64,000 nt of DNA from Thermoanaerobaculia bacterium (GTDB taxonomy: Bacteria > Acidobacteriota > Thermoanaerobaculia > Multivoradales > UBA5704). This document shows positions 43,201 through 46,200 of the stretch, piece by piece. The translations under genes were made by a program, and so were the position numbers. Position 1 is the stretch's first letter. The number at the start of each line of letters is the position of its first letter. The notes beneath the pieces were generated by a model. The model did not search any database and had not been told where the DNA came from. It worked only from the letters and a program-made list of their open reading frames with translations. Where the stretch lies: positions 4,270-68,269 of the forward strand of contig DATMER010000063.1 of assembly GCA_035556715.1 (NCBI GenBank), given 5' to 3'.

Positions 43201-46200
43201 TCCGCGGCCCGGCGCTGCTCTCCGGATCGGCATCGCTTTCCGTGAGCGAGGCCTGGACCTCCTCCGGGTTGAGCACGAGGGTGATCCCGGCGTCGGCGAT
43301 GAGGAAGGCCAGGCGCTCGGCGGGCAATGCCGGGTCGAGAGGCAGGTAGGCCGCGCCGGCCTTGAGGATGCCGAGCAGGCCCGCGACCAAGTCGAGCGAG
43401 CGCTCCAGCGAGACTCCGACCCGCACCTCGGGACCGGCGCCGAGCCGTCGCAGGCGGTGGGCGATCCGGTTGGCGCGGGCGTTCAGCTCCGCGTAGGTCA
43501 GGCTCTCCCCTTCGCAGGAGACAGCCACCCGGTCCGGCGTCCGCCGCACCTGCTCCTCGAACAGCTCAGGAACGGAACGGTCGGGGACTCCGGCAGCCGT
43601 GTCGTTCTCCTCGAAGAGCAGCGCGTGGCGCTCCGGCCGGGTGAGGAGCGGCAGCTCGTCGATCCGGCGGCCGGGGTCATCCGCGATCCCCTCCAGCAGG
43701 ACCCGGAAGTGCTCCAGCAGGCGGAGGACGGTCGGCGCGTCGAAGAGGTCGCGGCTGTACTCGGCCTTGACCGCGAGCCCGTCCTCCGTAGGGGAGACGG
43801 CCAGGGTGAGGTCGACCTTGGCCGAGTCTCCGGTCAGGCCCAGGACTCCGAGCTCCAGCCCGGTCGACCCGGTCGTCCCGGTCGGCCCGGCCGTGCCGGC
43901 CGCCGCCTCCAGCGGGTCGGCCTGGAGGAGGAACATGACCTGGAAGATCAGCGTGTGCGCCAGGCTGCGCTCGGGCTGGAGGGCCTCGACGAGCTTCTCG
44001 AACGGGAGGTCCTGGTGGTCGTACGAGGCCAGGGCCGAATCCCGCGTGCGCTTCAGGGCCTCCAGGAAGGTCGGCTGGCCCGACAGGTCGCCGCGCATCA
44101 CCAGGGTGTTCACGAAGAAGCCGATGAGCCCCTCGATCTCGGTCCGGTTGCGGTTCGCGATCGGGGTGCCCACGGGCAGGTCGTCCCGGCCAGTGTAGCG
44201 CCGCAGCAGGACCTGGAAGGCCGCGAGCAGGGTCATGAACGAAGTGGCGCCGGCGCGGCGGGCCAGGCTGTCCAGATCGTCGGCGAGCTGCCTGGGGAGG
44301 ACCATGCCCACGACATCGCCGCGGGGGGTGCGCACGGCCGGGCGCGGCCGGTCCGTGGGCAGGTCCAGCACGGCGGGCGACCCGGCCAGCCGCTCGCGCC
44401 ACCAGGCGATCTCCGAGTCCAGGAGCTCGTCGGTCAGCCAGCCGCGCTGCCAGGCGGCGAAGTCCGCGTACTGGACGGGCAGGCCCGGGAGCGGCGAGGG
44501 CCGCCCTGCCGCGAAGGCCTCGTAGAGGGCCTTCAGCTCGTGGACCAGCACGCGCAGGGACCAGCCGTCCGAGATGATGTGGTGCATCGTCAGCAGGAGG
44601 ACGTGGTGCTCCTCGTCCAGCCTGAGCAGCGTGGCGCGGGCGAGCGGGCCGGTTTTGAGGTCGAACAGCAGGCGGGCTTCATCCCGGGCCACCTTCAGGG
44701 CCTCGGCCTCCGGATCGGGAGCTGCGGTCAGGTCCACCGCCAGGAGCGGCAGGCCCGCGGCCGGGGTGATCCGCTGGACCACGGTGCCGTCCTCCGCCTG
44801 GTCGAAGGTGGTGCGCAGCGACTCGTGGCGGTCGGCCAGGGTGCCCAGCGCCGCGGCCAGGGCCGGGACCATGAGTGGGCCGCGCAGCCGCAGGGGCAGG
44901 GGGAGGACGTAGGAGGTCCCCTCGCCGCCGAGCTGCTCCAGGAACCAGAGCCGCTCCTGGGCGTAGGAGGCGGGCAGGTCCCGGTCCCTCGAAACGACAG
45001 CGATCGGCGATACCGGCACCAGCGGCGTCCGGCGCGCCGCCTCCACGCGGGCGGCGAGCCCCGCGACCGTGGGCGCCTCGAACAGGGAGCGCATCGGCAG
45101 CGCGACCTGGAACACCTCCCGCACCCGCGACACGAGCTGGGTACCCAGCAGCGAGTGGCCGCCGAGGTCGAAGAAGCTGTCGTTGACCCCGACCCGCTCG
45201 AGCCGCAGGACGTCCTCCCAGATCACGGCGATCAGCTCCTCGGTGGCCGTGCGCGGGGCCGGGGACACCTCGCCGGCCGGCTCGCGGGACGGCGCCAGGC
45301 CGGCCAGGGCCTTGCGGTCCACCTTGCCGTTCGGGGTCAGCGGCAGCGCGTCCAGAAGGACGAAGGCCGGCGGGACCATGTAGGCGGGCAGGCGGGCGGC
45401 GAGGAAGCTTTGCAGCTCCGCACCTGAAGGTGGCAGCGTTTCACCGGCGGGTGAAGCCGGTCCACCCGCGGGTGAAGCCTCTGCACCGGTTGGTAGAGCC
45501 TCTCCACCCGCCGGTGCAGCGTCCGCACCCGCGGGTGGAGCCTCCGCACCGCCGGGTGAAACCTCTTCACCGGGCTGTGGCGCGCCGTCACCCGCGGGTG
45601 CGGCGGTCCGGGAAGGCAGCGGGGCGACGTACGCCACCAGCGAGCGCTCTCCACCCTCGCCCAGCGCCAGCACCACGGCTTCGCGCACGCCCGGATGAGC
45701 GAGCAGGTGCGACTCGATCTCCCCCAGCTCGATGCGGAAGCCGCGCACCTTGACCTGGTGGTCGATCCGTCCCAGGAACTCCAGGCTGCCGACGGCGAGC
45801 GGGCGGACGAGGTCGCCCGTCCGGTACAGGCGCTCGCCAGCCGTGCCGAACGGGTCGGGCACGAACGAGGCCGCGGTGAGGTCCGGCCGGTTCAGGTAGC
45901 CGCGGGCCAGGCCGGCTCCGCCCAGGAACAGCTCGCCTGGAACGCCGATGGGCAGCGGCCGGAGCCAGCGGTCGAGCACGTGCGCCCGCGTGTTCGCGAT
46001 CGGGATGCCGATCGTCGGCTCCCCCGGCTCGTCGCGCGGAACGCGCACCCAGGTGGAGTAGGTCGTGTCCTCGGACGGGCCGTACAGGTTGTAGACGGCT
46101 TCCACCGTGGGCACGGCGTAGAGGAGGTCCACCACCGCCCGCTTGAGCGGCTCGCCCGCGAGGTTGATGGTGCGGACCGAGGCGGGCACGCCGTTCGAGC

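Follow-up and report, generated by a model that had tools for sequence, protein, structure and literature searches.

In a 64,000-nucleotide stretch (hereafter the window) of contig DATMER010000063.1, from a Thermoanaerobaculia metagenome-assembled genome (MAG), we find two tandem-repeat inserts within a single nonribosomal peptide synthetase–polyketide synthase (NRPS-PKS) open reading frame (ORF) of 7,954 residues. Both inserts are built from 21-bp units and occupy the loop between motifs a8 and a9 of an adenylation (A) domain, insert 1 in the first (A1) and insert 2 in the fourth (A4), and with the two that we identified in a related MAG there are at least four lineage-specific inserts at this one loop in two orthologous assembly lines. 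These arrays are evolutionarily labile and represent recurrent tandem-repeat expansion at a classic a8-a9 permissive site. We consider that they are probably lineage-specific, parallel expansions in situ, most plausibly by slippage, of a native self-complementary 21-bp loop unit in a near-neutral, disordered loop.

The A8 motif is recognizable in all 11 A domains of the three synthetase ORFs of the window, and the distance from A8 to A9 is 127 residues in A1 and 140 in A4, compared with 62-71 in the other nine A domains of the cluster. When the 11 domains are aligned with MAFFT, inserts 1 and 2 share one gap, which opens after the strand '..RxLVA(Y/F)V' and closes before the helix '(E)LRxxLxxRLPxYMVP'. 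An initial annotation, made from the DNA letters alone, had proposed that A1 carries a repeat-built insert at the same structural position as an insert in another A domain, quoting a peptide that we locate on the minus strand at window 45421-45601 (residues ~900-960). The alignment and the A8-A9 spacing bear out the common position, and Tandem Repeats Finder (TRF), autocorrelation and a unit search bear out the repeats.

Both inserts are coding tandem repeats by TRF and autocorrelation, with units running head to tail and in frame, a length that is a multiple of three and a location inside an uninterrupted ORF of 7,954 codons. For insert 1, which is rich in Pro, Ala, Gly and Glu, TRF reports a period of 21 (6.3 copies, 74% matches, score 124), and for insert 2 the same period with 11 copies and 81% matches. 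The ~18-bp repeats described initially are not what we measure, as the self-identity of insert 1 is 0.62-0.64 at shifts of 21, 42 and 63 nucleotides (0.64 at 21) against 0.39 at a shift of 18; a control stretch reaches 0.29 at shift 21 (overall range 0.27-0.42). The insert-1 unit, GCT xCA CCC GCG GGT Gxx GAG, codes for A-x-P-A-G-x-E (heptad xPxGxEA) and occurs six times with up to three mismatches, against 0.09 expected from shuffles, whereas the insert-2 unit is GGG GA[G/C] AGG G[C/G]T CTA CCC NNN, coding for G-[E/D]-R-[A/G]-L-P-x. Neither unit has a further copy in the window at up to three mismatches, and the two inserts have no significant DNA similarity to each other (their consensus units agree at 12/21 positions, which equals the null, and blastn returns no match). 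Two familiar motifs were considered for the peptides and set aside: a collagen-like Gly-X-Y reading fails on the period of 7 (GER-GLP-x), in which the Gly spacing alternates between 3 and 4, and an LPXTG-like reading fails because the motif is LPxG[DE], again with period 7.

The inserts come and go between related genomes. Another Thermoanaerobaculia MAG (L001) is collinear with the junction between the second synthetase ORF (B) and the large ORF at 71-74% identity, and a tree pairs its A domains with B1, B2 (80%), A1 (77%) and A2. Its A1 ortholog has no insert, A1 of the window is 65 residues longer, and the tblastn match of L001 to the large ORF stops exactly at residue 891, where insert 1 starts. 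Conversely, the L001 ortholog of B1 carries a 71-residue insert at the a8-a9 loop, a 21-bp-period array (PGTLPxx), and that of B2 a 46-residue degenerate insert at the same loop, unlike B1 and B2 of the window cluster, which have none. Presence and absence therefore differ between orthologs at 73-77% identity, as seen at one orthologous locus, and all four inserts are in frame and free of stops. Within the window, A3, the sister of A4 (86-87% identity), also lacks an insert. A further feature of L001 is that at 14471-17026, after the A2 ortholog, its sequence is 74% identical to residues 4136-4978 of the window synthetase (the end of A4 through A5), and its assembly line seems to be without the module 3-4 region.

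Parsimony prefers two gains to one gain followed by two losses, and the independence of inserts 1 and 2 is therefore favoured. The similar junctions (APLPS..APAGDG and APHPS..LPTGDG) at first suggested common descent. Against it stand the insert-free A3 and L001 A1, units that agree no better than the null and the empty blastn search, and the likeness of the junctions is explained by 'VAP..LP' being native to the clade, as in the relative L024 ('WVAPAQLPDQLPDLRSW'), which also indicates that small duplications occur at this loop. The initial proposal of two independent expansions is thus favoured by parsimony as to independence, although the expansions appear parallel rather than unrelated, since they would start from the same native heptad.

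Among ~420 other A domains surveyed, the median A8-A9 spacing is 70 residues, with occasional low-complexity extensions of +20 to +45. These (P0100, +33; three domains of L056, +31 to +44; L058, +23) occupy the same loop, are hydrophilic and are not domains, but they are shorter than the inserts described here and not detectably tandem-repetitive. Arrays of 21-bp periodicity adding +56 to +78 residues occur only in the window and L001 (one domain outside the window among the ~420). Low-complexity a8-a9 extensions were not described in the literature searched, and protein-database searches seeded with either insert gave no A domain with the same insert among the top matches; the insert-2 peptide has a single match, P0121, and this is no A domain.

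A probable source of the unit is visible in the uninterrupted L001 A1 ortholog, whose loop (GTG GGG GAG GGG GAT CTC CCG AGC TGG, V-GEGDLPS-W) is exactly one heptad. The 21 nucleotides of this heptad, GGG GAG GGG GAT CTC CCG AGC, are 16/21 identical to an insert-2 unit and are self-complementary (GGGGAG / CTCCC); other native loops of the cluster read GGG GAG ACC GGG CCG (A3) and GGG GAG GGG GCT CTT (C2). In this clade the native a8-a9 loop, a surface loop of the C-terminal subdomain, is one heptad G-E-x-x-L-P-S with the DNA GGG GAG ... CTC CCN, which is self-complementary because codons for Gly-Glu read as the reverse complement of those for Leu-Pro; both arrays also fold better as single strands than do dinucleotide shuffles. 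Expansion would have started from this loop, by slipped-strand mispairing or unequal recombination that the self-complementarity plausibly aided, multiplying the unit to ~10 copies in A1 and ~12 in A4, with the same expansion occurring independently in the B1 and B2 orthologs of L001. The resulting disordered loop would persist at a permissive point of the fold, the same boundary at which methyltransferase domains are embedded, most likely with little or no effect on catalysis. Expansion of native loop codons in situ would account for independent arrays sharing their period, codon phase, P-x-G-E motif and similar junctions.

Codon usage points to amplification from a single founder. The GC content of third codon positions (GC3) is 0.52 in insert 1 and 0.60 in insert 2 against 0.92 (standard deviation 0.06) gene-wide, and nowhere else in the 7,954 codons does a 60-codon window fall below a GC3 of 0.62. 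We explain this by rare codons of the founder unit having been copied through the array, a pattern that amplification of a single founder should leave: CTA makes up 1.4% of the Leu codons of the gene, yet 11/11 of those in the 11 phased insert-2 units, and GCT (5.4% of Ala), GGT (6.4% of Gly), TCA (2.5% of Ser) and AGG are also rare gene-wide (the five codons each at 1.4-6.4%) but dominant in the units. Whereas the four-fold degenerate sites of A1, A3 and A4 are near saturation (0.53-0.64 identical, compared to 0.43 by chance), those of GGG, CTA and CCC are invariant in 11/11 units of insert 2, from which we infer that the arrays were amplified or homogenized long after the module duplications. 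Units differ without regard to codon position (Fisher p=0.84, 0.14, 0.18), and nothing indicates purifying selection on the insert peptide. In insert 2, 11/21 columns are invariant and 30/34 deviations fall in columns 6, 8, 11 and 19-21. The idea that the non-synonymous rate (dN) is much greater than the synonymous rate (dS) among units was discarded, as a proper count gives no dependence on codon position and leaves only this column-specific conservation.

The inserts are predicted to encode an intrinsically disordered loop rich in Pro, Ala, Gly and Glu. In AlphaFold2 models of A1 (mean predicted local distance difference test (pLDDT) score 77.7) and A4 (mean 71.4), insert 1 (domain residues 400-455) and insert 2 are coil with pLDDT values of ~28-37 and ~28-33, respectively, flanked by a confident strand and helix and with no secondary structure within. 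No Pfam family matches either peptide at E<=1 and, with coil predictions and a pLDDT of ~30, the inserts are not auxiliary domains. Because they are not a domain, are predicted to be disordered and are built from 21-bp repeats, they add no chemistry; the insert probably has no catalytic role and its biological weight is probably modest.

The site itself is well known. By position, A1 and A4 are a8-a9 interrupted A domains, with extra sequence between a8 and a9, and their boundaries, LVAYVAP|insert and LVAFVAP|insert, fit the L(V/A/I)(A/G)(Y/F)xxx(P) boundary reported for every a8-a9 interrupted A domain that contains a methyltransferase (M) domain (Lundy et al. 2020, PMC8341866). Since this is the published methyltransferase interruption boundary, the tolerance of the site is established knowledge; what is unusual is that the extra sequence is no domain. 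Among the relatives surveyed, methyltransferase inserts at the same point bring the A8-A9 spacing to 365-479 residues. Separately, a PilZ domain (PF07238) lies at this boundary in Microcoleus spp. (P0152-P0154, spacing 175 residues), an interruption type not found in the survey of interrupted A domains (PMC8341866). The initial annotation had suggested that the loop tolerates insertions or is selected for them. Tolerance agrees with the known boundary, but absence from the ortholog and predicted disorder speak against selection, and they likewise leave its suggestion that the inserts influence interdomain dynamics without support.

Other explanations can be set against in-situ expansion. That insert 1 exists is solid, although its exact copy number, length and sequence are less secure. 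An ENA MEGAHIT contig (ERZ27251540:k141_4497306) is base-identical to window 38295-64000, insert 1 included, and a JGI protein from the same population (P0142) corresponds to residues 974-7954 with one substitution and no gap, reproducing insert 2. The JGI gene call starts at Met974, directly after the insert-1 array; with no in-frame start codon between residues 888 and 974, the only upstream one being at residue 888, this start implies that the JGI ORF is broken in insert 1 by a stop, frameshift or gap within residues 889-973. Such a break, in a sequence that comes from metagenome assembly, is what might be expected if the array or its length were a short-read repeat misassembly, but we regard this as very improbable: besides the identical ENA contig, the units are diverged enough (74% matches) for long k-mers to be unique, the array is in frame within its 7,954-codon ORF, an array absent from the JGI assembly would give a continuous rather than a broken ORF, insert 2 is gap-free in the JGI protein, and comparable arrays occur in the related MAG L001. 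The ENA contig also shows nine differences from the window, at 19572-20164 in a T2SSE/MshEN ATPase gene within ~600 bp of the contig end; the 25.7 kb over the NRPS genes are identical, and the nine reflect strain heterogeneity or a contig-end effect. A selected role of the peptide, as a disordered linker that adjusts how the C-terminal subdomain rotates or that provides tethering or docking within the megasynthetase, would fit the location in that mobile subdomain, the finding of four inserts at the same loop across two related assembly lines and their maintained, stop-free frames. However, the orthologous A1 works without an insert and different modules are interrupted in the two organisms, the peptide is not conserved between arrays, codon positions carry no signature of purifying selection, the inserts are predicted as coil with pLDDT ~30, and a permissive site with an expansion-prone native sequence explains the recurrence equally well, all of which makes selection as a linker improbable. 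About as improbable is a function at the level of nucleic acid, in which nucleotides rather than peptide would be maintained and rare codons together with mRNA or DNA hairpins would slow translation or transcription at this point of a gene 24 kb long, perhaps to give a pause for co-translational folding. It draws on the unique GC3 dips and the dominance of CTA, AGG, GCT, GGT and TCA, on the 11/21 invariant columns of insert 2, which include four-fold sites next to variable non-synonymous columns, and on single-strand folding energies relative to dinucleotide shuffles (z = -5.7 for insert 1, which holds a perfect 12-nt palindrome, CACCCGCGGGTG, and z = -4.7 for insert 2, in which the arms GGGGAGA and TCTACCC alternate). 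Yet neither the ortholog nor the sister paralog has the insert, there is no excess of stability over usage-matched synonymous versions, and invariant columns are also expected after recent amplification of one founder unit.

A stronger, though still unlikely, alternative is that the inserts are captured members of a non-coding, self-complementary 21-bp repeat family of GC-rich soil bacteria, which entered through microhomology with the native GGGGAG(A) and survived only through the permissiveness of the loop, in analogy to Rickettsia palindromic elements (RPEs) or palindromic amphipathic repeat coding elements (PARCELs). A metagenome scan with the insert-2 pattern found arrays of its unit in seven contigs, and six bases that the pattern left unspecified agree as well (AGGGCT, AGGGGT, AGGCCT). 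In four of these contigs (L083, L085, L086 and L087) the arrays lie outside ORFs with a coding GC3 signature, with stops in the 'LP' frame inside the array (L086, L087) or flanking it (L083, L085). By blastn, insert 2 matches L087 at 88% over 90 nt (E 9e-20) and L084 at 92% over 63 nt (E 5e-18); P0121 is a 179-residue call that lacks an A domain and consists of ~11 heptads, variants included, of the GERGLPT type; the L001 B2-type insert and a stretch in the a2-a3 region of L046 share the arms CCCCTCTCCC/GGGAGAGGGG; in their low GC3 the inserts look like non-coding DNA; and long 21- or 42-bp arrays occupy other Thermoanaerobaculia intergenic regions (L037 5712-6357, window 15766-16119). On the other side, insert 1 has no significant DNA match to insert 2 (12/21, the null) or to any fetched array, neither unit recurs in the 64-kb window, the contigs with insert-2-like arrays were picked with a pattern derived from insert 2, which makes the similarity partly circular, no link to a transposase or to a repetitive extragenic palindrome (REP)-associated tyrosine transposase (RAYT) was seen, and Rfam finds nothing. 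Moreover, the insert-free L001 ortholog already holds one unit as its native loop, which explains the unit without import. We therefore put forward only tentatively that a self-complementary 21-bp family, with arms GGGGAGAG / CTCT(A/C)CCC, populates intergenic DNA of Thermoanaerobaculia and allied GC-rich soil bacteria and seeds in-frame a8-a9 arrays; it would do so repeatedly at this loop because the native codons (GGG GAG ... CTC CCC) equal one element unit, and the proposal is weaker for insert 1 than for insert 2.

Expansion in situ remains the reading that we prefer, and several points weigh against it. One of three near-identical assemblies, that of JGI, breaks the ORF inside the insert-1 array, and a single orthologous locus (L001) was compared. 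The 88-92% blastn identity over 47-90 nt between insert 2 and apparently intergenic soil metagenome arrays is not predicted by a purely in-situ origin, and the GC3 of 0.52-0.60 and the invariant 'arm' columns may reflect a constraint on the nucleotides themselves or an origin in foreign, non-coding DNA. Recoding the inserts with usage-matched synonymous codons gives folds that are as stable or more so (z = +0.5 for insert 1 and +2.1 for insert 2), with the L001 array alone more stable than its recodings (z = -2.8). Palindromy may thus follow largely from a Pro/Gly-rich peptide being encoded in a GC-rich gene, although self-complementarity may still favour slippage; on the same recodings we abandoned the idea that rare codons were kept to maintain hairpins. 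Slippage as the mechanism and near-neutrality are themselves inferred rather than measured.

The apparently non-coding arrays have features of their own. The arms of the L083 array covary (T..A versus G..C), and L083, L084 and L086 all come from one metagenome (Ga0190265). The intergenic array at window 15766-16119, just upstream of a pfkB-family kinase gene (16126..17202), has a period of 42 (2 x 21) and ~8 copies, in which spacers of 23 nt (TCCGAAACGATCCCCGG) separate perfect hairpins (CGGGAAAG-nnn-CTTTCCCG), with no Rfam match. A link between this array (CGGGAAAG-ctc-CTTTCCCG) and the L001 B1-type unit (CCGGGAA-ccc-TTCCCGG) was rejected, as only a 6-bp stem is common and blastn is empty. 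In L037 (Thermoanaerobaculia MAG SMAG_U11578), ~650 bp at 5712-6357, between a TPR-repeat gene and an NRPS gene, hold three successive 21-bp arrays of different units (14, 5.6 and 10 copies) with no open frame across. L046, a contig of the same MAG as L001, has at ~6020-6080 a Pro-rich stretch, PHPPAPSPAPPFTPSPGEGE, in the a2-a3 variable region of another A domain, encoded, as in the L001 B2-type insert, by CCCCTCTCCC / GGGAGAGGGG arms. Rfam 15 at the gathering threshold gives no match in the window, L001, L037, L083 or L085-L087. REP/RAYT elements combine a GTAG head with a hairpin, are extragenic, and occur in hundreds of dispersed copies in genomes with a RAYT transposase. The inserts do not fit this description: they lie inside a gene as tandem arrays, no scattered copy turns up in the window (the search for a RAYT gene covered no other DNA), and the GTAG in insert-2 units stems only from the CTA codon.

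Table 1 Positions of the inserts, their host domains and genes, and the related soil arrays (window coordinates unless a contig is named).
Feature	Position	Strand	Description
Insert 1	45425..45625	-	67 codons, residues 892-958 (counting its degenerate first unit), APLPSRTA...GETLPPS; a8-a9 loop of A1; ~10 diverged heptads
Insert 1, core tandem array	45442..45600	-	TRF period 21 (42 and 63 also given)
Insert 2	35900..36142	-	81 codons, APHPS(GERALPx)n, 11-12 heptads; a8-a9 loop of A4
A1, module-1 adenylation domain of the large ORF	45302..46804	-	Residues 499-999; host of insert 1; Pfam AMP-binding and AMP-binding_C
A8 motif of A1, GRIDHQVKVRGFRIE	45728..45772	-	Upstream anchor of the insertion loop; regular expression and alignment
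A9 motif of A1, LPAYMVP	45371..45391	-	Downstream anchor; contains Met974
A4, fourth adenylation domain	35780..37321	-	Residues 3660-4173; host of insert 2; 86-87% identical to A3
A3, uninterrupted sister paralog of A4	39062..40375	-	Loop VSGETGPAELR (GGG GAG ACC GGG CCG GCC); native-state comparator
Large NRPS-PKS ORF	24434..48298	-	7,954 residues; host of both inserts
NRPS ORF 'B'	48295..54492	-	2,065 residues
NRPS ORF 'C'	54489..62534	-	2,681 residues
Soil metagenome arrays, apparently non-coding	L083 9776-10051; L084 2414-2474; L085 6260-6720; L086 103-335; L087 246-425		Unit GGG[G/T]AGAGG[G/C][G/C]TCT[A/C]CCC+3

The proteins of the window are the NCBI third-party annotation (TPA) entries HWM91824-HWM91848, identified by exact sequence matches and encoded on a 103-kb contig of an uncultured, soil-type Thermoanaerobaculia MAG. 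Two further NRPS ORFs lie upstream of the large one on the same strand (Table 1), and Pfam finds in the three repeated condensation–adenylation–thiolation (C-A-T) modules, one sulfotransferase domain and a terminal ketosynthase–acyltransferase–thioesterase (KS-AT-TE) arrangement. A1 is an NRPS adenylation domain of the ANL superfamily, with both Pfam profiles and the A8, A9 and A10 motifs present; all its core motifs are intact, and it shares its invariant columns with the other 10 A domains. Foldseek matches its AlphaFold2 model to McyA2, Txo2, DhbF, GrsA (1AMU) and the interrupted A domain 5WMM, with E ~1e-48 against solved A domains. Its specificity code, extracted like the others with a GrsA reference sequence, is DLYNNALTYK, one residue off the DLFNNALTYK of A3, A4 and C3; the Cys-like code that the initial annotation assigned to A1 (DLYDFSLIWK) belongs to the sixth A domain (A6). 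After A6, a PKS module (KS, KS-AT linker, AT, carrier and thioesterase; window 24461-28156, minus strand) closes the large ORF. The sulfotransferase domain (Sulfotransfer_3, E 4e-31; window 31583-32230, minus strand) stands mid-line, between the module-5 carrier and the next condensation domain, unlike curacin-type offloading, in which an acyl carrier protein, a sulfotransferase and a thioesterase (ACP-ST-TE) are arranged terminally.

Taken together, these inserts show that long unstructured sequence, and not just folded auxiliary domains, can be accommodated at the a8-a9 boundary, and that this has happened repeatedly in one enzyme lineage. This natural evidence of permissiveness is useful for engineering tags, linkers or domains into A domains, and the arrays offer a concrete example of how a native loop sequence that is self-complementary can give rise to repeats in parallel. 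Local dips in GC3 (0.52-0.60 versus 0.92) could flag young repeat inserts in GC-rich genes elsewhere. Were the connection with the non-coding 21-bp arrays real, it would suggest an undescribed repeat family in Acidobacteriota; should that family also seed a8-a9 loops, it would be a tandem-repeat analogue of RPEs and a recurrent source of disordered inserts in megasynthetases.

Among known palindromic coding elements, PARCELs resemble the inserts in being tandem coding repeats with DNA dyad symmetry and variable residues between conserved ones, but a PARCEL unit is an amphipathic motif of 25 residues, spread by horizontal gene transfer, whose host proteins have no known function and are in many cases targeted to membranes, whereas the inserts have a 7-residue Pro/Gly-rich unit inside an enzyme domain and no PARCEL-like motif. 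RPEs, which are palindromic elements inserted in frame into protein-coding genes of Rickettsia (PMC10969869), are similar in that self-complementary DNA is translated within a host protein at a tolerated place. They are, however, single elements of ~150 bp dispersed in many unrelated genes of one genome, whereas the inserts consist of tandem 21-bp units that are not dispersed in the window and that match the native loop of the L001 ortholog. Coding variable-number tandem repeats (VNTRs), which arise by slipped-strand mispairing, share with the inserts head-to-tail, frame-keeping units, a low-complexity product and lineage-specific presence. Classical bacterial examples sit in surface or secreted proteins and are linked to antigenic or phase variation, whereas inserts 1 and 2 lie in a cytoplasmic megasynthetase domain, and the only candidate sign of copy-number variation between strains here is the ORF break in one assembly. 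The a8-a9 interrupted A domains, represented by TioS A4aM4A4b (PDB 5WMM; families 1, 2 and 5 in PMC8341866), have the identical insertion point and, like A1, keep all core motifs in the host A domain, with 5WMM itself among the fold matches of A1; their inserts are ~290-390 residues, compared to 67-81 here, where the extra sequence has no Pfam domain, is predicted to be disordered and is made of 21-bp tandem repeats. The inserts described here combine two known things, interrupted A domains and coding VNTRs.

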